From positions 106,270,001 through 106,334,000 of the forward strand of contig CM059431.1 of the NCBI GenBank assembly GCA_030390025.1: a stretch of 64,000 nt of DNA, written 5' to 3'. The first letter of the stretch is position 1. Each line of letters starts with the position of its first letter. The notes below the pieces were generated by a model. It had not been told where the DNA came from, did no database searches, and saw only the letters and a list, made by a program, of their open reading frames with translations. A program made the translations under genes and the position numbers. The stretch comes from Squalus acanthias (Eukaryota). This document shows positions 7,693 to 59,852 of this stretch, in pieces.

Positions 7693-7808
7693 CTTCTCTT
7701 GTGTTGTAGCGTAACAGAAGTTCACTTGTGTGATCTGTACCAATTATTATCTGATGCCCATTTTATTTGGGACTAATCCCATTTTAGAAAGCTGCCTTTT
7801 AAATAATC

Positions 7809-7901
7809 AAAAGTGAGAAGTCGCACAACACCAGGTTATAGTCCAACAGGTTTATTTGAAATCACAAGCTTTCGGAGCGGCTGCTCCTTCGTCAGGTGAA
7901 G
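7809..7901 (-). mobile_element. Penelope-like mini-insertion (family A), 93 bp
   Basis: Flanked by TSD TAAATAATC (7800-7808, 7902-7910); same sequence as the inserts at 27263 and 59097; carries a hammerhead motif. Confidence 0.75.
7862..7899 (-). ncRNA. Minimal type-I hammerhead ribozyme motif
   Basis: UCAC-CUGACGA-A-GGAGC agcc GCUCC-GAAA-GC-UU-GUGA: core boxes, stem I, stem II and palindromic AGCU in place of stem III. Confidence 0.75.
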
Positions 7902-8391
7902 TAAATAATCCCCAGTAATTTTAAGATTGAATTTAAAAGGAACTCAAAGATATCCTAGATCTACTTACTTCCATTACAGTATGAAATCTTTCCAGACTAA
8001 ATGTTAAAAAGAGGAGTCTTGAGTTCAAGGCTCCTTTTTGAAAACACAAAAATCGATGGTGGGATGTAATCTTAATGTCCTTTATTTCTTTTTGATTTCC
8101 TTCTTTTATTTCTTAAGTTCTCTGCCTGGCGCACGCCTTACTCCATCCAGTTCCCAAGAGTAGGGACAGGTCTCTGCTGATGGCCTTCTCTAAGGGGCTG
8201 CACGTGCCACCAGTCCAAGAGAACATAGTCAACACCCCAACATTCACCCACTGTGTGGGTGTCTGACCACTGTTGCCTTTCCCTAGTGGCATATGTCGGC
8301 CTAGATCTTCCAATCGGCCTTTACAGCAGCAGAAGTCCCTCCAATGTGTCCAGCATTGCTGGCTTGCAAACGACATAAAGTACGTTCTATG

Positions 8392-13497: not shown

Positions 13498-14270
13498 GTG
13501 AAAGTGATCAATTTGAGATGTTAGGATATTGGGGGAATTATATCAGGAAATGAATAGCTTCTTGTTTTAACTTTCTCTTCTCTGGGGAAAAGCTCTTGCA
13601 TTACATCATGTTCTTTTTTTTTTTAAAGGGTTTATTTACTCACAGAATATTTCCAGACAAGATCGCAGTGGTTTCTCTTCTAGTCACGGATGCCTGTTGT
13701 TTCTGTGTATTCACTATAGAAATGGGCTGGCAAAATTTGCTGATCAGCCGCACTTGCTTCTCATCACTGCAGAAACTCAGCACATTGAGCTCAACATGAG
13801 CTGCAGCTGATGGCACTTGTTGATAGGATTGCAAGCTTGCTGTCAGTGTCCTGCTGCTCGTCAAGAGTCAGTTATTCACTCTAGCATTTCTCTGCCTCTT
13901 TGCTGAGTTGCTGTCATTTCATGCATCTCAGCGTCAAGCAATAGGGTGATGGCTTCAGGTTACCAGTGTTGTTTATGCAACAGAAGTGTTGAACAATATG
14001 TAAGGTGTCATATAGTATTTCAAGCTCCTACTCCGCCCTGTTATGTACACAAACAGATCAAAGTTTCACTGGCACCTTTGACGCAACTGAAGAAGCTACA
14101 TTTGAGGAAGAAAAATCTATTTTTTTTCCACAATATTTTTGATATTCAGGTTTTTTTTGCTTCATAGGACACATATCCTCCCACCAAGGCAGCAGGATAA
14201 ATCAGTCATAACAACAGAAAAAGCTGGAAAAACTCATCAGGCCAGGCAGCATCCGTGGAGAGAGAAACAG

Positions 14271-14307
14271 AGTTAACGTTTCAGGTCGAAGACCTTTCGT
14301 CAGAACT
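14271..14307 (-). ncRNA. Minimal hammerhead ribozyme motif
   Basis: Exact reverse complement of 14478-14514. Confidence 0.75.
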
Positions 14308-14477
14308 GGAAAAAGGCAGGAAATGAAATAGATTTTAAAGCAAGTATAAAGCTGGGAAAAGGGGGAGGGGATGAAAGGACAAAAGGAGAGATTAAGACCT
14401 TTTGTTCTTTCATCCCCTCCCCCATTTCCCCAGCCTTATACCTGCTTTAAAATCTATTTCATTTCCTGCCTTTTTCC

Positions 14478-14514
14478 AGTTCTGACGAAAGGTCTTCGAC
14501 CTGAAACGTTAACT
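14478..14514 (+). ncRNA. Minimal hammerhead ribozyme motif
   Basis: AGUU-CUGACGA-A-AGGUC uuc GACCU-GAAA-CG-UU-AACU; GUU triplet; palindromic ACGU in place of stem III. Confidence 0.75.
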
Positions 14515-14725
14515 CTGTTTCTCTCTCCACGGATGCTGCCTGGCCTGATGAGTTTTTCCAGCGTTTTCTGTTGTTATTTCGGATTTCCAGCATCCGCAGT
14601 ATTTTGCTAGGATAAATCAGTCAGCTGACTTCTCCACAGTCACAGCCAGTGCTACCTCTTGACCGGTTGATAGCAGTTACAAATCAAACAGGGCAGGGCA
14701 GTAGAATTCCATGTTTTCCTCACGG

Positions 14726-26657: not shown

Positions 26658-27262
26658 AAAGTGCCTAACAATCATGTGAGGAACACAACCAACCAGCAAT
26701 TGGCAATCACAATCAGACTAATAAAAATCCCTTGAGACTATGTGCTTTTTCTGCTGGCTACTTAATTAAGTACAGCATTAGGATTCCTGGTAACAAGACA
26801 TGTGTACTCAGTCCTACCAGAAACACTTGGGAGGATATCATTAATTCTACGAGTGGGTCCACCTTGATTACTCACGAGTGACAAAATGGCAAATGAGTTA
26901 CAATCAGTGCTCGAGCAGGATATAAATTGCATCCCACTGCTCTTCACCTTATATCACACTTTATTTGAGTCACTACAATTGAAACGCTATCTGAATAAGC
27001 GTCAAAAAGAACCATTTTAGATCTGTACTGTATTACAGCATGGAAAGTAAATGCTTCAGATATACACTGTCTGGACAATGGACTTTTCCCACTGACGTCA
27101 CTGTGATGCTTGCTTTTTTTTACAAGCTAGGAGAAGGATTCAGGTGTTGTAATGTAGAACACCCCCAGAAAGAAGGGAGTAGAGTTTTTGCTTAGGGTGC
27201 AAATGGAGAGAGAACAGTCATAGAGAGAGAGAACAGTCAGACAGATAGAATAGTCAGAGAGA

Positions 27263-27351
27263 AAAATGAGAAGTCGCACAACACCAGGTTATAGTCCAAC
27301 AGTTTTATTTGAAATCACGAGCTTTCGGAGCGCTGCTCCTTCGTCAGGTAA
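27263..27351 (-). mobile_element. Penelope-like mini-insertion (family A), 89 bp, inside the satellite
   Basis: Near-identical to 7809-7901; flanked by AGTCAGAGAGA on both sides (could be satellite sequence rather than a true TSD). Confidence 0.75.
27315..27351 (-). ncRNA. Minimal hammerhead ribozyme motif
   Basis: UUAC-CUGACGA-A-GGAGC agc GCUCC-GAAA-GC-UC-GUGA; CUC triplet. Confidence 0.75.
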
Positions 27352-30300
27352 AGTCAGAGAGAGAGAGAGAACAGTCAGAGAGAAAGAGAACAGTCAGAGA
27401 GAGATAGAACAGTCAAAGAGAGAGAACGAAAAGTCAGAGAGAGAACAGACAGGGAGAGAGAACAGTCAGAGAGAGAGAGAACAGACAGAGAGAGAACAGT
27501 CAGAGAGAGAGAGAGAGAGAACAGTCAGCGAGAGAGAACAGTCAGAGAGAGAGAGACAACATTCAGAGAGAGAGAACAGTCAGAGAGAGAGAGAACAGTC
27601 AGAGAGAGAGACAACATTCAGAGAGAGAGAGAGAAACAGTCAGAGAGAGAGAACAGTCAAAGAGAGAGAGAGAGAACAGTCAGAGAGAGAGATAACAGTC
27701 AGAGAGAGAGAACAGTCAGAGAGAGAGAACAAACAGGCAGAGAGAGACAACATTCAGAGAGAGAGAGAGAACAGTCAGTGAGAGAAACAGTCAGAGAGAG
27801 AGAGAACAGTCAGAAAGACAGAACGAAAAGTCAGAGAGAGAGAACAGTCAGTGAGAGAGAGAGACAGAGAGAGACAGAGAACAGTCAGAGAGAGACAGAG
27901 AACAGTCAGAGAGAGATAGAGAACAGTCAGAGAGAGAGACAGAGAACAGTCAGAGAGAGAGAGAACAGTCAGAGAGAGACAGAGAACAGTCAGAGAGAGA
28001 GAGAGACAGAGAACAGCCAGATGAAAGAGAGAACAGTCAGAGAGAGAGAGAACAGTCAGGGAGAGAGAGAGAACAGTCAGGAGAGAGCAGAGAGACAGAG
28101 AAAAGTCAGAGAGAGAGAGAGAGACAGAGAACAGTCAGAGAGAGAGAGAACAGTCAGAGAGAGAGAGAGAACAGTCAGAGAGAGAGAGAGACAGAGAAAA
28201 GTCAGAGAGAGACAGAGAACAGTCAGAGAGAGAGAGAGACAGAGAACAGTCAGAGAGAGAGAGAACAGTCAGAGAGAGAGAGACAGAGAACAGTCAGAGA
28301 GAGAGAGAACAGTCAGAGAGAGAGAGAGACAGAGAACAGTCAGAGAGAGAGAGACAGAGAACAGCCAGAGAGAAACAGAGAACAGTCAGAGAGAGACAGA
28401 GAACAGCCAGAGAGACAGAGAACAGTCAGAGAGAGAGGGAACAGTCAGAGAGAGAGAGAACAGTCAGAGAGAGAGAGAGAGAACAGTCAGAGAGAGAGAA
28501 ACAGTCAGAGAGAGAGAGAGGGAACAGTCAGAGAGAGAGAGAGAGACAGTCAGAGAGAGAGAGAGAGAGAGAGAGAACAGTCAGAGAGCGAACAGTCAGA
28601 GAGAGAGAGAGAACAGTCAGAGAGAGAGAAACAGTCAGAGAGAGAGAACAGTCAGAGAGAGAGAGAACAGTCAGAGAGAAAGAACAGTCAGAGAGAGAGA
28701 GAGAGAGAACAGTCCAGAGAGAGAGAGAGAGAGAACAGTCAGAGAGAGAGGAACAGTCAGAGAGAGAGAGGAACAGTCAGAGAGAGAGACAGTCAGAGAG
28801 AGAGAGAGAACAGTCAGAGCGAGAGGGAACAGTCAGAGAGAGAGAGAGAACAGTCAGAGAGAGAGAGAGAGAGAGAGAGAACAGTCAGAGAGAGAGAGAA
28901 CAGTCAGAGAGAGAGAGAGAGAACAGTCAGAGAGAGAGAGGGAACAGTCAGAGAGAGAGAGAAACAGTCAGAGAGAGAGAGAACAGTCAGAGAGAGAGAG
29001 AGAACAGTCAGAGAGAGAGAGAGAGAACAGTCAGAGAGAGAGAACAGTCAGAGAGAGAAGTCAGAGAGAGAGAGAGAGAACAGTCAGAGAGAGAGAACAG
29101 TCAGAGAGAGAGAAAGAGAACAGTCAGAGAGAGAGAGAGAGAGAACAGTCAGAGAGAGAGAGAGAACAGTCAGAGAGAGAGAGAGAGAACAGTCAGAGAG
29201 AGAGACAACATTCAGAGAGAGAGAGAACAGTCAGAGAGAGAGAGAGAGAACAGTCAGAGAGAGAGAGAGAACAGTCAGAGAGAGAGAGAGAACAGTCAGA
29301 GAGAGAGAGAGAACATTCAGAGAGAGAGAGAGAACATTCAGAGAGAGAGAGAGAGAACAGTCAGTGAGAGAGAGAACAGTCAGAAAGACAGAACGAAAAG
29401 TCAGAGAGAGAGAACAGTCAGTGAGAGAGAGAGACAGAGAACAGTCAGAGAGAGAGAGAGACAGAGAACAGCCAGAGAGAGAGAGAGAACAGTCAGGGAG
29501 AGAGAGAACAGTCAGGGAGAGAGAGAGAACAGTCAGAGAGAGAGAAAGACAGAGAACAGTCAGAGAGAGAGAGAGAGAGAACAGCCAGAGAGAGAGAGAA
29601 CAGTCAGAGAGAGAGAAAGACAGAGAACAGTCAGAGAGAGAGAGAGACAGAGAACAGTCAGAGAGAGAGAGAGAGACAGAGAACAGCCAGAGAGAGAGAG
29701 AACAGTCAGAGAGAGACAGAGAACAGTCAGAGAGAGAGAGAGACAGAGAACAGTCAGAGAGAGACAGAGAACAGTCAGAGAGAGAGAGAGACAGAGAACA
29801 GTCAGAGAGAGAGAGAACAGTCAGAGAGAGAGAGACAGAGAACAGTCAGAGAGAGAGAGAACAGTCAGAGAGAGAGAGAGACAGAGAACAGTCAGAGAGA
29901 GAGAGACAGAGAACAGCCAAAGAGAAACAGAGAACAGTCAGAGAGAGACAGAGAACAGCCAGAGAGACAGAGAACAGTCAGAGAGAGAGGGAACAGTCAG
30001 AGAGAGAGAGAACAGTCAGAGAGAGAGAGAGAGAACAGTCAGAGAGAGAGAAACAGTCAGAGAGAGAGAGAGGGAACAGTCAGAGAGAGAGAGAGAGACA
30101 GTCAGAGAGAGAGAGAGAGAGAGAGAACAGTCAGAGAGCGAACAGTCAGAGAGAGAGAGAGAACAGTCAGAGAGAGAGAAACAGTCAGGGAGAGAGAGAA
30201 CAGTCAGAGAGAGAGAGAACAGTCAGAGAGAAAGAACAGTCAGAGAGAGAGAGAGAGAGAACAGCCAGAGAGAGAGAGAGAGAGAACAGTCAGAGAGAGA

Positions 30301-33300
30301 GGGAACAGTCAGAGAGAGAGGGAACAGTCAGAGAGAGAGACAGTCAGAGAGAGAGAGAGAACAGTCAGAGAGAGAGGGAACAGTCAGAGAGAGAGAGAGA
30401 ACAGTCAGAGAGAGAGAGAGAGAGAGAGAACAGTCAGAGAGAGAGAGAGAACAGTCAGAGAGAGAGAGAAACAGTCAGAGAGAGAGAGAACAGTCAGAGA
30501 GAGAGAGAGAGAACAGTCAGAGAGAGAGAGAGAGAACAGTCAGAGAGAGAGAACAGTCAGAGAGAGAAGTCAGAGAGAGAGAGAGAGAACAGTCAGAGAG
30601 AGAGAACAGTCAGAGAGAGAGAGAGAAACAGTCAGAGAGAGAGAGAGAGAGAACAGTCAGAGAGAGAGAGAGAACAGTCAGAGAGAGAGAGAGAGAACAG
30701 TCAGAGAGAGAGAGAGAACAGTCAGAGAGAGAGAGAACAGTCAGAGAGAGAGAACAGTCAGAGAGAGAGAGAACAGTCAGAGAGAGAGAGAACAGTCAGA
30801 GAGAGAGAGAACAGTCAGAGAGAGAGAGAGAACAGTCAGAGAGAGAGAGAGAACAGTCAGAGAGAGAGAGAGAACAGTCAGAGAGAGAGAGAGAACAGTC
30901 AGAGAGAGAGAGAGAACAGTCAGAGAGAGAGAGAAACAGTCAGAGAGAGAGAGAAACAGTCAGAGAGAGAGAGAGAACAGTCAGAGAGAGAGAGAGAGAA
31001 CAGTCAGAGAGAGAGAGGAAACAGTCAGAGAGAGAGAGAGAGAACAGTCAGAGAGAGAGAGAACAGTCAGAGAGAGAGAGAACAGTCAGAGAGAGAGAGA
31101 GAACAGTCAGAGAGAGAGAGAGAACAGTCAGAGAGAGAGAGAGAGAGAACAGTCAGAGAGAGAGAGAGAGACAGTCAGAGAGAGAGAACAGTCAGAGAGA
31201 GAGAGAGAACAGTCAGAGAGAGAGAACAGTCAGAGAGAGAGAGAGAACAGTCAGAGAGAGAGAGAGAATAGTCAGAGAGAGAGAGAGAACAGTCAGAGAG
31301 AGAGAGAACAGTCAGAGAGAGAGAGAGAGAACAGTCAGAGAGAGAGAGAGAACAGTCAGGAGAGAGAGAGAGAACAGTCAGAGAGAGAGAGAGATGAGAA
31401 CAGTCAGAGAGAGAGAAACAGTCAGAGAGAGAGAGAACAGTCAGAGAGAGAGAGAGAAACAGTCAGAGAGAGAACAGTCAGAGAGAGAGAGAGAACAGTC
31501 AGAGAGAGAGAGAGAAACAGTCAGAGAGAGAGAGAGAGAGAGAGAACAGTCAGAGAGAGAGGAACAGTCAGAGAGAGAGAGAGAAAGTCAGAGAGAGAGA
31601 GAGAGAGAGAGAACAGTCAGAGAGAGAGAACAGTCGAGAGAGAGAAAGTCAGAGAGATGAGAACAGTCAGAGAGAGAGAGAATAGTCAGAGAGAGAGAGA
31701 GAACAGTCAGAGAGAGAGAAAGAATAGTCAGAGAGAGAGAGAGAGAATAGTCAGAGAGAGAGAACAGTCAGAGAGAGAGGAGAATAGTCAGAGAGAGAGA
31801 GAGAACAGTCAGAGAGAGAGAGAATAGTCAGAGAGAGAGAGAGATGAGAACAGTCAGAGAGAAGAGAGAACAGTCAGGAGAGAGAGAGAGAGAAACAGTC
31901 AAGAGAGAGAGAGAGAACAGTAGAGAGAGAGAGAGAGACAGTCAGAGAGAGAGAGAACAGTCAGAGAGAGAGAGAGAACAGTCAGAGAGAGAGAGAGAGA
32001 GAACAGAGAGAGAGAGAACAGTCAGAGAGAGAGAGAGAACAGTCAGAGAGAGAGAGAGAACAGTCAGGAGAAGAGAGAGAGAAGAACAGTCAGAGAGAGA
32101 GAGAACAGTCAGAGGAATGGAGAGAACAGTCAGAGAGAGAGAGAGAATAGTCAGAGAGAGAGAGAGAGAACAGTCAGAGAGAGAGAGAACAGTCAGAGAG
32201 AGAGAACAGTCAGAGAGAGAGAGAGAACAGTCAGAGAGGGAGAGAGAGAACAGTCAGAGAGAGAAACAGTCAGAGAGAGAGAGAGAGAACAGTCAGAGAG
32301 AGAGAGAGAGAACAGTCAGAGAGAGAGAGAACAGTCAGAGAGAGAGAAACAGTCAGAGAGAGAGAACAGTCAGAGAGAGAGAGTGAGAACAGTCAGAGAG
32401 AGAGAGAACAGTCAGAGAGAGAGAGAGAGAACAGTCAAGAGAGAGAGAGAGAGAACAGTCAGAGAGAGAGAACAGTCAGAGAGAGAGAGAGAACAGTCAG
32501 AGGGAGAGAGAGAGAGAACAGTCAGAGAGAGAGAGAACAGTCAGAGAGAGAGAGAGAGAACAGTCAGAGAGAGAGAAACAGTCAGAGAGAGAGAGAGAGA
32601 ACAGTCAGAGAGAGAGAGAACAGTCAGAGAGAGAGAGAGAGAACAGTCAGAGAGAGAGAGAGAGAGAACAGTCAGAGAGAGAGAGAACAGTCAGAGAGAG
32701 AGAGAGAGAACAGTCAGAGAGAGAGAGAGAGAGAGAACAGTCAGAGAGAGAGAGAGAACAGTCAGAGAGAGAGAGAGAGAGAACAGTCAGAGAGAGAGAG
32801 AGAACAGTCAGAGAGAGAGAGAGAGAACAGTCAGAGAGAGAGAGAGAGAGAACAGTCAGAGAGAGAGAAACAGTCAGAGAGAGAGAAACAGTCAGAGAGA
32901 GAGAGAACAGTCAGAGAGAGAGAGAGAAACAGTCAGAGAGAGAACAGTCAGAGAGAGAGAGAGAACAGTCAGAGAGAGAGAGAGAAACAGTCAGAGAGAG
33001 AGAGAGAGAGAGAACAGTCAGAGAGAGAGGGAACAGTCAGAGAGAGAGAGAGAAAGTCAGAGAGAGAGAGAGAGAACAGTCAGAGAGAGAGAACAGTCAG
33101 AGAGAGAGAGAAAGTCAGAGAGAGAGAACAGTCAGAGAGAGAGAGAATAGTCAGAGAGAGAGAGAGAACAGTCAGAGAGAGAGAAAGAATAGTCAGAGAG
33201 AGAGAGAGAGAATAGTCAGAGAGAGAGAACAGTCAGAGAGAGAGAGAATAGTCAGAGAGAGAGAGAGAACAGTCAGAGAGAGAGAGAGAATAGTCAGAGA

Positions 33301-35744
33301 GAGAGAGAGAGAGAACAGTCAGAGAGAGAGAGAGAACAGTCAGAGAGAGAGAGAGAGAACAGTCAGAGAGAGAGAGAGAACAGTCAGAGAGAGAGAGAGA
33401 GAACAGTCAGAGAGAGAGAGAACAGTCAGAGAGAGAGAGAACAGTCAGAGAGAGAGAGAGAGAACAGTCAGAGAGAGAGAGAGAACAGTCAGAGAGAGAG
33501 AGAGAGAACAGTCAGAGAGAGAGAGAGAACAGTCAGAGAGAGAGAGAGAGAACAGTCAGAGAGAGAGAGAACAGTCAGAGAGAGAGAGAGAACAGTCAGA
33601 GAGAGAGAGAAACAGTCAGAGAGAGAGAGAACAGTCAGAGAGAGAGAGAGAAACAGTCAGAGAGAGAGAGAGAAACAGTCAGAGAGAGAGGGAACAGTCA
33701 GAGAGAGAGAGAGAGAACAGTCAGAGAGAGAGAGAACAGTCAGAGAGAGAGAGAGAATAGTCAGAGAGAGAGAGAGAACAGTCAGAGAGAGAGAGAACAG
33801 TCAGAGAGAGAGAACAGTCAGAGAGAGAGAACAGTCAGAGAGAGAGAGAGAGAGAACAGTCAGAGAGAAAAACAGTCAGAGAGAGAGAGAGAGAACAGTC
33901 AGAGAGAGAAACAGTCAGAGAGAGAGAGAGAGAACAGTCAGAGAGAGAGAGAGAACAGTCAGAGAGAGAGAAACAGTCAGAGAGAGAGAACAGTCAGAGA
34001 GAGAGAGAGAGAACAGTCAGAGAGAGAGAGAACAGTCAGAGAGAGAGAGAGAGAACAGTCAAGAGAGAGAGAGAGAGAACAGTCAGAGAGAGAGAACAGT
34101 CAGAGAGAGAGAGAACAGTCAGAGAGAGAGAGAGAGAGAGAACAGTCAGAGAGAGAGAGAACAGTCAGAGAGAGAGAGAGAGAACAGTCAGAGAGAGAGA
34201 AACAGTCAGAGAGAGAGAGAGAGAGAACAGTCAGAGAGAGAGAGAACAGTCAGAGAGAGAGAGAGAACAGTCAGAGAGAGAGAGAGAGAGAGAACAGTCA
34301 GAGAGAGAGAGAACAGTCAGAGAGAGAGAGAGAACAGTCAGAGAGAGAGAGAGAGAGAACAGTCAGAGAGAGAGAGAGAGAACAGTCAGAGAGAGAGAGA
34401 GAGAGAACAGTCAGAGAGAGAGAGCAGTCAGAGAGAGAGAGAGAGAACAGTCAGAGAGAGAGAGAGAACAGTCAGAGAGAGAGAGAGAGAGAGAACAGTC
34501 AGAGAGAGAGAGAGAGAGAACAGTCAGAGAGAGAGAGAGAGAGAACAGTCAGAGAGAGAGAGAGAGAACAGTCAGAGAGAGAGAGAGAGAGAACAGCCAC
34601 AGAGGGAGAGAACAGTCAGAGAGAGAGAGAGAGAGAACAGTCAGAGAGAGAGAGAGAGAACAGTCAGAGAGAGAGAGAAGAGAACAGTCAGAGAGAGAGA
34701 GAGAGAACAGTCAGAGAGAGAGAGAAGTGAACAGTCAGAGAGAGAGAGAGAGAGAACAGTCAGAGAGAGAGAGAGAACAGTCAGAGAGAGAGAGAGAGAG
34801 AACAGTCAGACAGAGAGCAAGTATGCTCAAAATTGTGCTGGTTTTCAGAAGTGGTTTTTTATCCCTCAATTTTCCGCTCAAGCTCATTTGCATATCGCCG
34901 AATGCAAAATCTTCCATGAACCCGCACAATCGGGCAACGTTTCAGAAGTCATTTTAATATTTTTTTTCCAATTCTTAAGCAAAAGTAGCTTTGCGATCCA
35001 AGAAGCCACTTTTGCCCATTAAGAGAAATGCCATTCCAAAGTGTTCCGGACCATTCTAACTCCTGGCCCACTGTATGTGTTACTATCCTCATAAGCAATG
35101 GAGGCGATTCTGTTATTTAATGAGCTCCTGTACGTTTGCTGTCTGTTCAGGTTTAAACGACACGTCATTTTGCATTCGCAAAGTCTCAGTCTGTAAATCT
35201 CCCCACACAGTGGCTGCTGGCTGTCATTTTGTAAAGGCTCTGCTAGCTTCTGCTATTAGATGATAATCCTGTAATGTTAGGTACAGCATTGCACTGATTA
35301 TACACAAATAACAACTGAACCATTAAAATGACTGATTTGTTGCAGTGAGTGAGAAATAATACAAGTGATATTTTCTAGCTTCATTGAATTCTGGCATCCA
35401 GCATCACAAATTTAAATAGCTACTGTACTTAATTAAGCATCACATATTTTAAAAAAAAACTCTGGCTATATCCTTGCCACTACTGCTAGGTGTATTGGTT
35501 AGCCAAAAGGAAAAGCTCTGTACATCTGAAACAAATTCACTAGGAGAAGGAAATTCCACAAACCGTGCCGAAAAATATTTCTAAAGTGATTAGTAACAAT
35601 TTGCATAGATTGTGTTGAGGTGGTAGATGGGAGAGTCTAATGTTAGCAGCAAAGAAGGAAAAAAAGAACTTGCATTTCTATAGCGCCTTTCACATTCTCA
35701 GGATCTCACGTCCCAAAGCGCTTTACAGCCAATTAAGTACTTAT

Positions 35745-43100: not shown

Positions 43101-43157
43101 AAATCAGGAGAGCAGGTTAAAATTGGGTCCAAAACGCAACTCATATATTTAGGGAAA

Positions 43158-43250
43158 TAAAAAAACAGAACATGTTGGAAATCCGCAGCAGGTCAGCCAG
43201 AATCGGTGGAGAGAGAAACAGAGTCAACGTTTCAGGTCGATGACCTTCAT
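43158..43250 (-). mobile_element. Penelope-like family B arm, decayed; hammerhead cut off
   Basis: Aligns to 14209-14300; ends at CCTTCATC. Confidence 0.65.
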
Positions 43251-44195: not shown

Positions 44196-44305
44196 AACTC
44201 TCTCTCTCTCTCTCTCTCTCTCCACAGATGCTGCCTGACTGACTGAGGGTTTTCCAGCATTTTCTGTATTTATTTCAGATCTCCAGCAGCCGCAGTATTT
44301 TGCTC
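44196..44305 (+). mobile_element. Penelope-like family B arm, decayed
   Basis: Aligns to 14511-14608 (CTCTCCAC.GATGCTGCCTG...CCGCAGTATTTTGCT) with an expanded (CT)n. Confidence 0.65.
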
Positions 44306-47269: not shown

Positions 47270-50200
47270 GCCAGTGCTGGGACTAGTGTCCTGGCGAATC
47301 GAATAACTAGGGCTGTGGAGAGGGCTTTAAACTAATTAGTGGGGGGGAGGTTTCAAGAGAGCAAAAAATAAAAATGACAACAGAGAGGGTCATAGACATA
47401 GGTAGCAGTAGGGGAATCACAAATCAGAGCGTGGCAGGAAGGGACAGAGTGTGTGGAGTAAAAGGTAAACTGGTAAAAAGTGAAAAAGCAGGAACTAAGT
47501 GCCACAAAGCATATTTGAAAGTTCTCTATCTGAATGCACGTAGCATTCGTAACAAAATAGATGAGTTAATGGCACAAATAACTACATATGGTTATGATAT
47601 TGTGGCCATTACAGAAACATGGCTGCAGGGTGACAATGCCTGGGAATTAAACATACCAGGTTATTTAACGATCAGGAAGGACAGGCAGGAAGGAAGGGGA
47701 GGTGGGGTGGCTATGTTAATAAAGGAAGGAATCACTGTAATACAGAGTAATGATATTGGGTCAAAAAATCATGATAATGAAACAGTTTGGGTGGAGATAA
47801 GGAATAATAAGGGGAAAAAAACATTAGTGGGCGTAGTCTATAGGCCTCCGAACAGTTGCAACTCTATTGGACGGAGTATCAATCAGGAAATAGTTGAGGC
47901 ATGTAATAAGGGAACATCTATAATTATGGGGGATTTTAACTATCATATTAATTGGACAAATCAAATGGGGCAGGGCTGCCTTGAGGATGAGTTCATTGAG
48001 TGTATTAGGGATGGGTTTCTTGAGCAGTATGTAACTGAACCGACCAGGGGGCAAGCAACCTTAGATCTGGTCCTGTGTAACGAGACAGGATTAATTAAAA
48101 ATGTCCTAGTAAAGGATCCCCTTGGAATGAGTGACCATAACATGGTTGAATTCCATATTCAATTAGAGGGTGAGAAGGTTGGATCTCAAACAAGCGTGCT
48201 AAGCTTGAATAAAGGAGACTATGAAGGTATGCGAGCGGAATTGAGTAGAGTGGATTGGGAAAATAGATTAAAGGGTAAGACGACACATGATCAGTGGTGT
48301 ACATTCAAGGAGTTATTTTACAACTTCCAAAAAAAATATATTCCACTGAAAAGAAAAGGGTGTAAAAGAAAGGACAGTCATCCGTGGCTAAGTAAAGAAA
48401 TTAAGGATAGTATTCGACTAAAAACAAGGGCATATAAGGTAGCGAAATCTAGTGGGAGGACAGAGGATTGGGAAAACTTTAAAAGGCAGCAAAAAATAAC
48501 AAAAAGATTGATTAAGAAAGGGAAGATAGATTATGAAAGTAAATTAGGAAAAAATATAAAAACAGATAGTAAGAGTTTTTATAGTTATATAAAAAGAAAA
48601 AGGGTGGCTAAAGTAAATGTTGGTCCCTTAGAGGATGAGACCGGGAAATTAATGGTGGGAAATATGGAGATGGCAAAAACACTGAATGAATATTTTGTAT
48701 CAGTCTTTACAGTAGAGGACACTAAGAATATCCCAACACTGGACAAACAGGGGGCTATAGGGGGAGAGGAGCTAAACACGATCAAAATCACTAAGGAAGT
48801 GGTACTCGGTAAAATAATGGGACTCAAGGCGGATAAATCACCTGGACCTGATGGCTTACATCCTAGAGTCTTGAAGGAAGTGGCGGTAGGGATTGTAGAT
48901 GCATTGGTAATAATTTTTCAAAACTCCCTGGATTCCGCTAAGGTCCCGGCAGACTGGAAAACTGCTAATGTAACACCCTTATTTAAAAAGGGCAGTAGAC
49001 AGAAGGCTGGTAACTATAGACCGGTTAGCCTAACATCTGTGGTAGGTAAAATTTTGGAGTCCATTATTAAGGAAACAGTAACAGGACATTTGGATAATCA
49101 TAATTTAATAGGACAAAGTCAGCATGGTTTTACGAAGGGGAAGTCATGTTTGACAAATTTGCTGGAGTTCTTTGAGGAAGTAACATATAGAGTGGATAAA
49201 GGGGAACCAGTGGACGTAGTGTATTTAGACTTCCAAAAGGCATTTGACAAGGTGCCACACAAAAGATTATTGCTTAAGGTAAAAAATCACGGAATTGGGG
49301 GTAATATTCTGGCATGGATAGAGGATTGGCTATCTAACAGAAAGCAAAGAGTTGGGATAAATGGTTCATTCTCAGACTGGCAATCAGTAACTAGTGGTGT
49401 TCCACAGGGGTCAGTGCTGGGTCCCCAACTCTTCACAATCTATATTAACGATTTGGAGGAAGGGACCAAGTGTAACATATCAAAATTTGCAGATGATACA
49501 AAGATGGGAGGGAAAGTAGTGAATGAGGAGGACATAAAAAACCTGCAAGGGGACATAGACAGGCTAAGTAAGTGGGCAGAGATTTGGCAGATGGAATACA
49601 ACACTGGAAAGTGTGAGGTGATGCACTTTGGCAGGAAAAATCCTAGAGCAATTTATTATCTTAATGGCAAGAAACTGGAGAGTACTGAAGTGCAAAGGGA
49701 TCTGGGGGTCCTGGTGCACGAAACTCAAAAGGTTAGTATGCAGGTGCAGCAAGTGATTAAGAAGGCAAATGGAATGTTGGCTTTCATTGCTAGGGGGATA
49801 GAATATAAAAATAGGGAGGTATTGCTTCAGTTGTACAAGGTATTGGTGAGACCGCACCTGGAATACTGCATACAGTTTTGGTGTCCTTACTTAAGGAAAG
49901 ACATCCTTGCTCTCGAGGCAGTGCAAAAAAGGTTCATTCGGTTAATCCCGGGGATGAGGGGGTGGTCATATGAGGAGAGGTTGGGTAGATTGGGACTCTA
50001 CTCATTGGAGTTCAGAAGAATGAGAGGCGATCTTATTGAAACATATAAGATTGTGAAGGGGTTGGATCGGGTGGATGCGGGGAGGATGTTCCCGATGACG
50101 GGTGAGACGAGAACTAGGGGACATAGTCTTAGAATAAGGGGCTGCTCTTTCAAAACTGAGATGAGGAGGAACTACTTCACTCAGAGGGTGGTAGGTCCAT

Positions 50201-50562
50201 GGAATATGCTGCCACAAAAAGCTGTAGAAGCTACAACATTAATTAAATTTAAAACAGAAATAGACAGTTTCCTAGAAGTAAAGGGCATTAAGGGTTACGG
50301 GGAGCGGGCAGGAATTTGGACATGAGTCTAGGTTCGGATCGGTCATGGCCCTGTGGGTAGTGGAGCGGGCCCAGGGACTGTGTAGCCTGATTCTGCTCCT
50401 ATTTCGTGTGTGCAATTCTGTTAGATGCAGGAGATGGTTCTGTGATAGATAGTAGATTGGCGGTTAGGATCAGATCAGCCATGATCTTATTGAATGGCGG
50501 AGCAGGCTCGAGGGGCCGATTGGCCTACTCCTGCTCCTATTTCTTATGTTCTTATGTTCTTA
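47270..50562 (+). mobile_element. Young 5'-truncated CR1 LINE nested in the older CR1
   Basis: TSD TGTAATG (47263-47269, 50563-50569); starts in the last codons of ORF1 (GTSVLANRITRAVERALN*); (TTCTTATG)n tail. Confidence 0.95.
47374..50325 (+). CDS. CR1 ORF2: APE endonuclease plus reverse transcriptase, intact, 983 aa
   Basis: YLNARS, ITETW, VYRPP, MGDFN, SDH endonuclease motifs; SPGPDG, YRPVSL, DFQKAFD, GVPQGSVLGP, FADD RT motifs; no stop codons. Confidence 0.97.
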   Translation: MTTERVIDIGSSRGITNQSVAGRDRVCGVKGKLVKSEKAGTKCHKAYLKVLYLNARSIRNKIDELMAQITTYGYDIVAITETWLQGDNAWELNIPGYLTIRKDRQEGRGGGVAMLIKEGITVIQSNDIGSKNHDNETVWVEIRNNKGKKTLVGVVYRPPNSCNSIGRSINQEIVEACNKGTSIIMGDFNYHINWTNQMGQGCLEDEFIECIRDGFLEQYVTEPTRGQATLDLVLCNETGLIKNVLVKDPLGMSDHNMVEFHIQLEGEKVGSQTSVLSLNKGDYEGMRAELSRVDWENRLKGKTTHDQWCTFKELFYNFQKKYIPLKRKGCKRKDSHPWLSKEIKDSIRLKTRAYKVAKSSGRTEDWENFKRQQKITKRLIKKGKIDYESKLGKNIKTDSKSFYSYIKRKRVAKVNVGPLEDETGKLMVGNMEMAKTLNEYFVSVFTVEDTKNIPTLDKQGAIGGEELNTIKITKEVVLGKIMGLKADKSPGPDGLHPRVLKEVAVGIVDALVIIFQNSLDSAKVPADWKTANVTPLFKKGSRQKAGNYRPVSLTSVVGKILESIIKETVTGHLDNHNLIGQSQHGFTKGKSCLTNLLEFFEEVTYRVDKGEPVDVVYLDFQKAFDKVPHKRLLLKVKNHGIGGNILAWIEDWLSNRKQRVGINGSFSDWQSVTSGVPQGSVLGPQLFTIYINDLEEGTKCNISKFADDTKMGGKVVNEEDIKNLQGDIDRLSKWAEIWQMEYNTGKCEVMHFGRKNPRAIYYLNGKKLESTEVQRDLGVLVHETQKVSMQVQQVIKKANGMLAFIARGIEYKNREVLLQLYKVLVRPHLEYCIQFWCPYLRKDILALEAVQKRFIRLIPGMRGWSYEERLGRLGLYSLEFRRMRGDLIETYKIVKGLDRVDAGRMFPMTGETRTRGHSLRIRGCSFKTEMRRNYFTQRVVGPWNMLPQKAVEATTLIKFKTEIDSFLEVKGIKGYGERAGIWT

Positions 50563-53884: not shown

Positions 53885-54825
53885 CTAGTTTAAATCCTTC
53901 GCAACAGCAATAGCAAACCCCCCCCTGTGAGGATATTGGTCCCAGTTCTGCCGAGGTGTAATCTGTCCAACTTGTACAGGTCCCACCTTCTCCAATGCCT
54001 CAGGAATTTAAATCCCTCCCTCCTACATCATCTCTTCAGCCACGCATTCATCTGGTCTATTCTCCTATTTCTGCTCTTGCTAGCATGTGGCACTGGGAGT
54101 AATCCTGAGATTACTACTTTTGAGGTCCTGCTTTTTAATCTGTTACCTAGCTCCCTAAATTCTGCTTGCAGGACATCATCCCTCTTTCTACCTATGTTGT
54201 TGATACCAATATGGACCATGACCTCTGTCTGTTCACCCTCCCCGTTCAGAATGTCCTGCAGCCGCTCAGTGACATCCTTGACGCTGGCACCAGGGAGGTA
54301 ACATACCATCCTGGAGTCACGTCTGCGGCCACAGAAACGTCTATTTGTTCCCCTTACGATAGAATCCCCTATCACTATTGCTCTCCCACTCTTTTTCCTC
54401 CCATCCTGTGCAGCTGAGCCACTCGTAGTGCCACGGACTTGGCTCTTGCTGGATTCCCCTGAGAAACCATCTCCCCCAGCATTATCCAAAACGGAAAATC
54501 TGTTGGAGAGGGAGATGGACCCAGGGGACTCCTGCACTACCTTCCTAGTTCTTTTACTCTGTCTGGCGGTCACCCATTCCCTTTCTGCCTGTGCACTCTT
54601 TACCTGTGGTGTGACCACCTCGTTATACGTGCTATCCACATAGATCTCAGCCTCGCGGATGCTCCACAGTGACTCCAGCCGCAGCTCCAGATCCAAAACG
54701 CGGATTTTGAGTAGCTGCAGCTGGAGACACTTCCTGTACACATGTTCGCCCTGGACACCGAAAGTGTCCCTGACTTCCCACATAGCACAGGAGGAGCACT
54801 CCACGCTGCCGAGCTGCCCTGCCAT
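53885..54825 (-). pseudogene. CR1 ORF1 (zinc finger, leucine zipper, SGNH esterase), frameshifted near the C-terminus
   Basis: CSSC...KC, LELRLESL zipper, NRFSVL, VIGDSIVR, LPGA, VHIGINN in ORF 54028-54825. Confidence 0.88.
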
Positions 54826-56717
54826 GTCCTACCCTTAATTTACTCTCTTTACTTCCTCTAAATTAAAGAATATTAAATACACTAGGGACCTTACTTCACC
54901 TAACACACTACTTACTCTAAACTAGAGACCTTACTTTTCTTTAATAACTGGACTGTAGAAATACTCAGCAGGTCCTACTTACCAATCAGCTCCTTCCCTA
55001 GTTGTGACATCACTTTAGTGGTTTTGCAGTTGTTGTTGTTGTTTGACTGCTCCCTAAGAGGGCGCTAACAGGGCACAAATCAACTAGCGCCCAGGCACGG
55101 CGCCGCTAACGCCTCCCGCGAAATTCAGCGGGAGGTTAGTGGCGGCGCTAACCGTTAGTGCGGTGCAGTGCCGCCGCCGATTAAGTCATTGCCGTGCGCA
55201 GCGCCCCGCTCGTGCCCCGCCTGTAATATTGGGTGGCGCCCCCTGACTTACCGCCGGACGCTATGTCCGCCGGGGTCAGGGGGGCCTACCTGCGGCCGGG
55301 GCTGCGCTAGTTAAAGGGGAGGTAGCAGGTGGCCATTTTTGTTGCTGGGCCTGCCCCCGTTGCTGTCTGCGGCCCCCGTGAAGTCCCCCCGCGGGGTGCC
55401 GGCTGCTCTCTGTGAGCCCGGCACTCCTCTTGAGTGTCGGGCTCGTTTGCCGGCACTCCCGATCCCTGGTGGCCCAGCTGGGCGCCGGCATGCGCTGTGC
55501 CACGCCCCTCCCCTTTAATAAGGGGAGGAAGGTCTGAAATACCGCGGCGCGACGTGCCGCTGCGCGTGGCACTGCGGCATGTAGCGCCGCGATATTGGCT
55601 CGCAGTGCCCCAAGAGGGACGCGGGGTGCTTCCAGTCGCGCCCCTCCTCCCTCTCGGGGCGCTACCTGGGAAAATCGGCTGCGGGGGCGCTAACTTTTTC
55701 GGGGCGCTAAAATTAGGAGCGCTACCCAATTTTTACCCCCAAGTCTCTTGATTTTCTGTCGAGAAACCCATTTTAAGTCCGTGCTTTAAAAAAAAAAATT
55801 ATTCCTGAATAATTACCCTATTCTTTGATCAATAAACTTTCCCTGTGAAGGACACATGTTTCCCTGGTTTCCTTGACGATGGTCCTCTATTTTCACCCAA
55901 TGTACTCATGAAGGCGAACACATGAAAAAGCAATGAAATTGTTCTAGGTTCTAAGTAAAGAAATGTATCAGAATATGCCAGGTTGAGACTGATGTACCGC
56001 ATATTATAACCCATATTACATAAACATGTGCGTTGAAAGATGGCAAATAATCCCCTTCGTGACGCTCAATTACTTTCCTGTGAGGATGTAGATATTCTCC
56101 CTCCACACAGCATGTAATGTCCTCAGTTTATAAATCACTAAAACTTGTTTAAGGGTTTCTAATAAGACGCCTTTCTCTCTCATTTCATTTCTAGATTACC
56201 AGTCGTTTTTTTCTCTCCAAATTCCATTCTTTGTTAAAAATGAGGCACTATCTTAGATAGGAGAATGCAGGAGGGGAAAACAAAGAGATAAATTGTGAAT
56301 CTGCAGACATTTTTAAACATTGAGATTCAAAGGTGGCATGTGGTTATCTATCTGAGAAATGGAATGACATTTTTTTAATTATATTTAAATGTGGTGCCGG
56401 CCAACATTCGACCTCGCCACCATTTCTCAGCTTAGAAGATGGAGGGATGCTGTTCAATACAGTACGGCCACAGCAGGATAAATACCTGCTATTAACATCT
56501 TTGATGGGAACAAATGGCTTTATAGAATATTGACTTCTTGAGCAAATTAACCTTTCAGTTAAAATTCAGTCCATGCGAACAGGAGTATAAATTTCATTAA
56601 ACTATACGCTCGGCTTTTGGCCAGCATGTATTCCTTTGTGGTGAAGACATACTGTCTTATAATCTACCAAATTTTTATTTCTTTTCTTCATCCATCTGGC
56701 CTGACACATCTAATCAG

Positions 56718-57840: not shown

Positions 57841-59096
57841 CTAGCAGAGGTTACATTTATAGCAGGGTGATCCAATCCTCTGTTTTGCCTCCCCTCAACA
57901 CGTAGCACTTTCATTGAAAAGAGGCCTAAACCTTTGCTCTGGCAGGCAAGCTTGAATGACAGACACTTCTGAGACTCGAGCTTGCGCCTAACTGGTTTAG
58001 ATGCAGGTGGTCCACAGCCTGTGCTGGCGGGCTCCCTCCGTTTATTATCCCTAGTTTCCCATATGTTTTCCTTTATTTTCCCGCGAAGGTCTCCACCGAT
58101 TCTCTTGCAGTCAGAATGTCCACTGTTAACAATCTGTTAGGACAGAAGCCACACTGTGAGGTGTTCTCTTCTGAGGAGGCATACTCCAGTCGCGTGGGGT
58201 GTCCCATCTGGGCTTAGCCGGAAAACCGGCAAAAGCCTGTCTCATGGTGCACAGCGAACAGATTGGAAGATATCAGGCAGTCCTGAGATTCAAGTCACTG
58301 ACCACAGGAACATAAAGCATGTGCTTTAACCATAGAATAACTATGAGATTCTCTCTGCTGCCTTACCTTTAAAAATGAGCAGAACCAGCTATCGCTGGAT
58401 TTATATAGAAACAGATATGGCAAAAGTAAGACTGATGCATTTTCATGAATTTAGGTTCAGACTCAAATTGGCACGGGGCAATGAGTATTTTGTTTTGGGA
58501 TATAGTTTTGCAGGCGCTGGGTGCCATCTGGTACATCTTACAAGTGGTCATTATGGCATGTGTGAGCAGGGACTGTGATTGTAATCCAGCTATTTGACCA
58601 AATAGGGCATCACATCTGAGCCCCAATCTTAGTCACAGTGAAATATTACACATGTACAGAGATCTTTAAAGAAAGACTTGCATTTCAATAGCGCCTTTTC
58701 ATGACCACCGGACATCCCAAAGCGCTTTACAGCCAATGAAGTACTTTTGAAGTGTAGTCACTGTTGTAATGTGGGAAACGCAGCAGCCAGGTTGCGTACA
58801 GCAAGCTCCCACAAACAGCAATGCGATAATGACCAGATAATTTGTTTTAGTGATGTTGATTGAGGGATAAATATTGGCCAGGACACTGGGGCTAACTCCC
58901 CTGCTCTTCTTCAAAATAGTGCCATAGGATCTTTTACGTCCACCTGAGAGGGCAGACGGGGCCTCAGTTTAACAGCTCATCCGAAAGACGGCACCTCTGA
59001 CAGTGCAGCACTCCCTCAGTATTGCACTGGAGTGTCAGCCTAGATTTTTGTGCTCAAGTCCCTGGAGTGGGAGCAAGGATGTCTTACTACAGTTAT

Positions 59097-59307
59097 GATG
59101 CGGAGATGCCGGTGTTGGACTGGGGTGGACAAAATTGAGAGGTCGCACAACACCAGGTTATAGTCCAACAGTTTTATTTTAAATCACAAGCTTTCGGAGT
59201 TACAACTCCTTCCTCACTTCACCCGACGAAGGAGTTGTAACTCCGAAAGCTTGTGATTTAAAATAAAACTGTTGGACTATAACCTGGTGTTGTGCGACCT
59301 CTCAATT
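59097..59307. mobile_element. Penelope-like fold-back insertion (family A), 211 bp
   Basis: 13-bp TSD TTACTACAGTTAT (59084-59096, 59308-59320); ~78-bp inverted arms; hammerhead with variant core CCGACGA at 59219-59256. Confidence 0.8.
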
Positions 59308-59547
59308 TTACTACAGTTATACAGGGCCTTGGTGAGACCACACCTGGAGTACTGTGTGCAGTTTTGGTCTCCTTACCTAAGAAAGGATATACTTGCCATA
59401 GAGGGAGTGCAGCGAAGGTTCACCAGACTGATTCCTGGGATGGCAGGACTGTCGTATGAGGAGAGATTAGGTCGACTAGGCCTGTATTCACTAGAGTTTA
59501 GAAGAATGAGAGGGGCATCTCATTGAAACGGATAAAATTCTGACAGG

Positions 59548-59852
59548 ATACGATAGCAAAATACTGCGGATGCTGGAAATCCGAAATAACAACAGAAAAC
59601 GCTGGAAAAACTCAGCAGGCCAGGCAGCATCCGTGGAGAGAGAAAGAGAGTTGACGTTTCAGGTCGATGACCTTTCATCAGAACTGGGAAGAGCTGGAAA
59701 TCAAATAGATTTAAGGCCAGGGTAAAGCTGGGAAAAGGGGGAGGGGATAAAGGAACAAAGGAGGAGATGAAGAGACATTAAGAGACATTAAGAGATATGC
59801 AAGGCTAGAGGTGGTGTTAATGTGACAGATTAAGGCTGAATGAAGTGTGAAA
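59548..59852 (-). mobile_element. Penelope-like insertion (family B), 305 bp
   Basis: TSD GACAGG (59542-59547, 59853-59858); aligns to the 14209-14608 arms. Confidence 0.78.
59649..59685 (-). ncRNA. Minimal hammerhead ribozyme motif with canonical GUC triplet
   Basis: AGUU-CUGAUGA-A-AGGUC auc GACCU-GAAA-CG-UC-AACU. Confidence 0.8.

Follow-up and report, generated by a model that had tools for sequence, protein, structure and literature searches.

The life cycle of Penelope-like elements (PLEs) is poorly known and the role of the hammerhead ribozyme that they carry is open. Among the closest described systems are the 5'-truncated units of endonuclease-positive PLEs, which share with the locus presented here a hammerhead end module, a tail on one arm, an inverted pair and duplications of 9-13 bp (PMC8557442, PMC3846280); the same sources place an optional tail of 30-40 bp at the 3' end. 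However, these units are described there as variably truncated, whereas three arms of the present locus share one 5' base. PAc, a Poseidon element of Anolis carolinensis, resembles the present inserts in its two classes of 3' end separated by the tail, in the uncleaved hammerhead of its copies and in its AT-rich targets (two of the three inserts here), and its two end classes, tailed and tail-less, correspond to two internal starts of reverse transcription (PMC11167929). The ORF of PAc starts in stem II (PMC11167929), and the portions of that account drawn on here report no preferred genomic 5' end, in contrast to the end shared by the window arms. The minimal hammerhead of metazoan PLEs (PMC4209133) displays, as here, a 4-bp helix I, a bulged base before helix II, a G10.1-C11.1 pair, a palindromic 1-bp helix III and a mostly solo occurrence, while helix II has 7-8 bp in the Schistosoma families as against 5 bp in the present copies, whose self-cleavage is predicted. 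Animal non-LTR retrozymes (PMC7229834; preprint 10.64898/2026.07.22.740005) are likewise non-coding, carry a type I hammerhead and are related to the pLTR; nevertheless, they are defined by hammerhead tandem repeats and circular RNA (PMC7229834), whereas the copies of the present locus are solo or inverted and bear the minimal motif. The supplements of the preprint list the retrozyme families of a chondrichthyan, which may include the family described here (10.64898/2026.07.22.740005).

The window, i.e. the whole 64-kb stretch of DNA that was analysed, is repeat-rich eukaryotic DNA with LINE-type reverse transcriptase fragments and no N. A BLAST search of three inserts (A, B and C, Table 1) against it yielded four arms, all of the same family, and none besides at E < 0.18. 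Three of these are full arms of 93-94 nt, each composed of a minimal type I hammerhead and a further 57 nt; their pairwise identities are 89/93, 84/94 and 83/93 (up to 11% apart), and several of the differences are common genome-wide in public contigs, so that no single master copy can be taken as their source. Four of the five tested features of a PLE end module are present, namely a minimal type I hammerhead of the terminal repeat (descriptor scan), the optional 30-40-bp tail (34 nt, on the left arm of C only), an adjacent inverted 5'-truncated copy (insert C, arms identical at 82/82 positions) and target-site duplications of 9 (A), 11 (B) and 12-13 bp (C). Judged by these sequence features, the inserts are very probably end modules of a PLE; read thus, the insertions of about 94 bases are short dead copies of its ribozyme-bearing end. 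The Penelope-like origin proposed in a preliminary description of this DNA is therefore borne out by the hammerhead, the 34-nt tail, the inverted copy and the duplications, and the coordinates and motifs given there for the three inserts hold.

Table 1. Features of the three inserts, with positions in the window.
Feature	Positions	Strand	Remarks
Insert A, hammerhead and 57-nt 3' part, tail-less	7809..7901	-	7902 may belong too (1-nt microhomology)
Left target-site duplication of A, 9 bp	7800..7808		Empty site in organism B contig
Right target-site duplication of A, 9 bp	7902..7910
Minimal type I hammerhead in A	7862..7899	-	Stem I 7899-7896/7865-7862, core 7895-7889, bulged A, 5-bp stem II, GAAA 7873-7870, palindromic helix III, predicted cut 7866/7865
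Insert B, hammerhead and 57-nt 3' part, C3 at 27347	27263..27351	-	Homology runs on to 27354 via 3-nt microhomology with the duplication
Left duplication of B, 11 bp, within minisatellite	27252..27262
Right duplication of B, 11 bp	27352..27362
Left duplication of C, 12-13 bp, within LINE fragment	59085..59096
PLE tail on left arm of C, 34 nt (distal reverse-transcription start)	59097..59130	-
Left (inverted) arm of C, 5' cut within hammerhead core	59131..59212	-	82/82 nt identical to right arm
Right arm of C, full unit, tail-less, core variant U4C, one compensatory pair in stem II	59216..59309	+	Start possibly 1-2 nt earlier
Right duplication of C, overlapping terminal Ts of right arm	59310..59320

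The sense-strand layout is the same in each full arm: stem I has 4 bp, the core reads CUGACGA and is followed by a single bulged A, stem II has 5 bp and is followed by GAAA, and helix III is a palindrome of one pair. The core is intact in A and B and carries U4C in C; any self-cleavage would probably proceed in a dimer or with the help of protein. A descriptor scan of the window recovered six hammerheads (three of this family and three of a second one, treated below) as against a mean of 0.1 in 30 shuffles, and in the six rows 58 of 60 cells were paired, with one compensatory pair, rows of this number being too few for significance. Rfam left the hammerhead unmatched both in the window and in 7780-7930, and its miRNA-like matches at 14.3-14.5 kb represent the fold-back of the second hammerhead family. 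On folding the unit of about 94 nt, stability did not exceed that of shuffles (z -0.05 to -0.87).

The sites of insertion differ in kind. The empty site of A is seen in a contig of the related organism B, in which 7799 and 7902 are joined, 9 letters being compatible with either side, and whose right flank shows 10 letter differences and 1 gap over 199 nt; the left flank of A has no contig cover in runs X1 and X5 (organism A), and the insert itself carries a private 1-nt insertion. Insert C (59097-59309) is a head-to-head pair, and its target is present once in paralogous LINE copies of the window, providing a second, independent empty site. Insert B lies in a GA-rich minisatellite with a unit of 17-21 bp. 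The minisatellite as a whole (27206-35000) extends over 8 kb with a 17-23-bp unit and extreme strand skew, and insert B stands near its left edge. The 5' variant of B was found again in the loose-end consensus of run X1, and the extended 5' match of this insert is thus not accidental. When the antisense frame of B, itself spurious, was used as a probe of predicted proteins, none of 8 candidates scored, and 2 further matches were discarded as unrelated repeat proteins.

At their 3' ends, the full arms terminate in CTCA(C/T/A)TTTT without a tail, and the left arm of C runs 34 nt beyond this point into the PLE tail. To view the ends beyond the window, contigs of public runs were aligned to window positions 7700-8100 (9727, 8999 and 1669 contigs in three DNA runs); the loose-end figures given here and below come from the best 24 of 263 rows, derived from 757, 547, 163 and 101 partly aligned contigs. 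A tailed class has its loose ends at 7808, with a consensus that equals the tail of the C left arm (79, 74 and 24 contigs in the three DNA runs), and a tail-less class ends at 7809 with long, unlike flanks (68, 46 and 20 contigs); minor classes among those listed (best 24 of 263) fall at 7806 (20 contigs), 7813-7814 (26 and 30) and 7816 (19). By analogy with the anole element, the shared 3' end would be the tail-less reverse-transcription start of PLEs, as already published (PMC11167929), and since this internal start is known both with and without the tail, no new unit is needed to explain the 3' end. What the preliminary description called the tail of a ribozyme-plus-tail insertion corresponds to the 57 nt that separate the cut site from the proximal start; the PLE tail proper occurs only on the left arm of C. 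As a side observation, in both families of the window the tail is able to fold back and pair with the body, which places the tail-less end inside a hairpin (59097-59170 on the minus strand, 14520-14610 on the plus strand and 59554-59645 on the minus strand), although the stability of these hairpins is not significant one by one (z -0.18 to -1.73).

The finding is mostly known biology, with the exception of the 5' boundary. In register, the agreement of A, B and the right arm of C extends to an A 7 nt upstream of core C3 and breaks off at the following base. With the duplications taken at maximal length, the 5' end of A lies 2 nt before stem I and that of B directly at it (0 nt); the right arm of C is ambiguous. 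If microhomology of 1-3 nt is admitted, a single base, located 3 nt ahead of stem I, accommodates the 5' ends of all three arms; the possible ranges relative to C3 are -6 to -7 in A, -4 to -7 in B and -7 to -9 in the right arm of C, and the microhomology with the duplication amounts to 1 base in A and three in B. The recurrence of boundaries noted earlier thus holds for three arms, but it concerns only three events, and the left arm of C, omitted from the earlier note, ends at G5-G8 of the core, 9-12 nt short of the boundary of the other arms. Under simulated exponential truncation (35 nt plus a mean of 50, 100 or 200 nt), three of four ends fell within 6 nt with p = 0.039, 0.011 and 0.003, respectively, in a post hoc simulation covering three insertion events, two of the four arms coming from one event (C). 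Since arms of the second family measure about 95-300 nt, the middle values of the simulated means are reasonable.

Public contigs inform on the same boundary. A single contig of run X1 (n = 1 among 9727) has a joint going back 94 nt, which by its span fits a head-to-tail repeat of the unit with the same boundary. The window holds no tandem, as compared with the two or more tandem units by which retrozymes are recognised. Among the best 24 of 263 rows, the largest class of loose ends on the 5' side lies at 7902 in all three DNA runs (45, 34 and 12 contigs), with a median overhang of 150 nt in organism B and of 18 and 32 nt in organism A. Its consensus agrees between runs for 10-15 nt, and shared sequence passes the 5' boundary by at least 10 nt in contigs of three DNA runs; the shared upstream consensus together with the short overhangs in organism A thus implies that the parent continues upstream, and many copies with it. 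As the reference ends at 7902, run-off copies and longer copies pile up together and this class gives no size for a spike of ends. Contigs of run X15 (putative RNA) pass the boundary too (3 at 7905), and the 7902 consensus resembles, by eye, the sequence upstream of the hammerhead in the marine-metagenome locus L002 (see below). Taken by the preliminary description as a sign of a defined minimal unit, the shared ends are non-random to the extent of the simulated p values (0.039-0.003) and of the one base that they fit; the unit itself is upheld only in part, as copies extend at least 10 nt upstream, one arm ends inside the core, the second family is scattered and the unit lacks both the tail and the signals further downstream on which priming depends in the studied PLE.

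The RNA of the element may begin at the left end that the arms share immediately ahead of the ribozyme. An initiator-like motif is defined as BBCA+1BW. In the upstream consensus of X1 and X5, the boundary base falls at +1 of such a motif, a post hoc match to a motif that occurs at 1.7% of window positions; TCACT, an initiator-like word, is described in the pLTRs of rotifers (PMC3846280). A splice acceptor at the 5' boundary of the A/B/C family was considered and rejected, no AG preceding the boundary in the loose-end consensus. In the literature searched, from which subscription papers were mostly absent, no description was found of a preferred 5' end or of a strong-stop-like insertion of PLEs, and the one work combining the terms "Penelope-like" and "strong-stop" concerns fungal Copia elements.

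The account of the inserts that we place first, and which as a whole falls slightly short of being probable, is that they are dead-on-arrival PLE copies, primed at the 5' pLTR site of uncleaved RNA and completed by run-off at a preferred RNA start. The staggered cut, which would be made by the GIY-YIG nuclease of an endonuclease-positive PLE, is shown by the duplications of 9-13 bp. Within the RNA, the reverse transcriptase would start at either of two sites separated by 34 nt, which would give the tail-less and the tailed 3' ends that both occur here. The template was RNA left uncut by the hammerhead, as the motif kept whole in the copies shows. A complete priming signal would lie close to the 5' end of the transcript, where the pLTR meets the ORF, and priming would occur there; the enzyme would then run off the preferred RNA start, some 7 nt upstream of core C3. 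The cDNA would finally be joined to the target via microhomology of 1-3 nt. The expected product is a "strong-stop"-like insert of about 94 nt (128 nt with the tail), longer copies arising by priming at the downstream pLTR or from RNAs starting further up. In vitro, the studied PLE primes internally on RNA of the pLTR-ORF junction, truncation of the template at its 5' end shortens the product, priming needs sequence downstream of the start sites and not ribozyme cleavage, and uncleaved RNA is the dominant substrate (PMC11167929). Run-off is supported by the fact that three arms of different variants fit the same 5' base and differ just upstream of it; against it stand the small number of events in the window (three only) and the left arm of C, which stops inside the core. 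Furthermore, the start site of Drosophila virilis lies 46 nt plus a 75-nt intron (PMC2377424) upstream of helix I (PMC4209133), which speaks against a start at helix I.

Extended to PLEs at large, the same account would hold that these elements routinely insert their own "strong-stop" cDNA, that the fixed run-off of 94 or 128 nt is their commonest product, since priming is internal and a full signal lies near the 5' end of the transcript, and that the very numerous solo minimal hammerheads of animal genomes form a fossil map of PLE transcription starts instead of random truncations; this generalisation is possible and is put forward tentatively. If true, it would explain why solo hammerhead motifs far outnumber full elements, and a fixed 5' end would allow the RNA start to be read from genome sequence alone. 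If a genome-wide spike of 5' ends is absent, the inserts are ordinary PLE debris.

The RNA may, on the other hand, have been longer, positions -4 to -9 acting as a pause or as a hot spot for joining by microhomology into AT-rich target, for example at a protein-bound or folded barrier on the RNA. This is unlikely, although it would accommodate the 1-3 nt of microhomology at all three junctions, the many copies that continue upstream and the endings of the C left arm and of two second-family arms within or beside the hammerhead. By -7, however, a polymerase moving 3' to 5' would already have opened both stem I and stem II; the stability of the region is unremarkable (z about -0.2 to -0.9), and one to three matching bases can be had at almost any position.

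Random 5' truncation by a poorly processive enzyme, with the clustering due to chance in a small sample and to a focus on intact ribozymes, is the more ordinary explanation, for high 5' truncation is typical of PLEs (PMC8557442) and most minimal hammerheads are single motifs ascribed to truncated PLEs (PMC4209133). The summed contig depth also declines steadily from the 3' part to the hammerhead, a trend confounded by edge effects, by the insertion in A and by stem II variants, and the second family is scattered. Nevertheless, BLAST recovers no copy of other length, whether longer or shorter, from the window for this family, and all four arms end within about 14 nt of one another; together with the simulated p of 0.04 to 0.003 for three of four ends within 6 nt and the 94-nt tandem joint, which fits the same boundary, this makes random truncation decidedly unlikely.

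The shared ends, the duplications and the abundance of the sequence (all the contigs aligned in the three DNA runs) could also suit a self-propagating, non-autonomous element of 94 nt, either as a mini-SINE or as a retrozyme monomer produced by one round of copying on a 94-nt circle; the one 94-nt tandem joint and the origin of animal retrozymes in pLTRs, their consensus lengths beginning at 51 bp (preprint 10.64898/2026.07.22.740005), point the same way. Yet the copies of the window are solo or head-to-head and never tandem, copies with a tail or with an upstream extension are common, the arms represent different variants and the core of C carries U4C. The unit moreover lacks the tail, whereas the PLE studied in vitro needs sequence downstream of its start sites (PMC11167929), and an independent element of this kind is quite improbable. 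Cleavage of the template RNA by the hammerhead, to which the second-family copy starting about at a predicted cut site (44196; weak) and one X5 contig with a joint from 7865 might be referred, is hardly tenable and is contradicted for these inserts by the whole core upstream of the cut kept in all three arms, by the lack of a 7865 class among the loose-end classes listed (best 24 of 263) and by the dispensability of cleavage in vitro (PMC11167929). The earlier view that the 5' end is not at the cleavage site and that the template was uncut is accordingly retained, and a constant 5' end immediately before a ribozyme that is still intact indicates that uncleaved RNA served as the template of insertion.

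A PLE parent with reverse transcriptase and GIY-YIG domains was not among the 8 of 53 long window frames scanned, which gave LINE-type reverse transcriptase/endonuclease, a GDSL-like match or nothing. Scans with exact patterns returned 0 matches in viral contigs, in metagenome contigs (pattern of the 3' part) and in prokaryote genomes; a degenerate hammerhead pattern recovered two marine-metagenome loci, L001 and L002, with the same hammerhead layout. As parents these were rejected, being distant relatives only. In the part downstream of the ribozyme, which lay outside the pattern, the marine-metagenome relative shows a weak alignment to the tailed left arm of C, at a score attained by 15 of 5000 shuffles, and to A, which has no tail, at a score attained by 186 of 5000. 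L001 carries a reverse transcriptase fragment (RVT_1, E 1.5e-05, below the curated cutoff); the nearest Atlas clusters of a frame in L002 are GIY-YIG (score 0.97; the family on 23-34% of members), by Atlas feature search only, and Pfam gave no match on this nuclease frame. In both loci, a near-identical hammerhead stands beside rearranged reverse transcriptase and GIY-YIG-like fragments. The nuclease frame of L002 has a Cys-rich segment upstream, as described for the linkers of Neptune and Nematis, and positions 1385-1470 of this locus fold into a hairpin similar to the tail-body hairpin of the window families.

A second hammerhead-bearing family of PLE type, with different stems and the palindrome ACGU, occupies 14199-14609, 59554-59852, 43154-43250 and 44196-44304, and includes a fold-back pair of which one arm is tailed, with a duplication of 14 bp recognised by eye. 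The 5' ends of this family scatter over positions of about -171, -94 and -81, a point within the core (joined there to another repeat) and the vicinity of the cut site, and a fixed 5' end is thus not a general rule. In this family, the 5' strand of stem I overlaps with a tract of pyrimidines that terminates in CAG (14465-14481 on the plus strand, 14304-14320 and 59682-59697 on the minus strand); the tract resembles a splice acceptor and echoes the end of the D. virilis intron at helix I, which by analogy suggests intron-retaining copies. The start of the copy at 44196 seems to coincide with the predicted cut site and precedes an expanded CT run, and no duplication was found for this copy; the position from which the X5 contig joins, 7865, is likewise the predicted cut position of the A/B/C family, and both could represent rare cleaved templates. 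Internally deleted variants are seen in contigs of X1 and X5 (7827-7894 and 7834-7880) with a 12-nt gap at a depth of 73-80, besides other skips of 42-45 nt with letters between, and such deleted subfamilies may themselves have spread. Apart from these hammerhead families, a 1004-codon open frame at 47311-50325 on the plus strand carries AP-endonuclease and reverse transcriptase domains and represents a fairly intact LINE ORF2. A frame at 54028-54828 on the minus strand has a weak GDSL-lipase/OSK match, as do esterase-type LINE ORF1 proteins.
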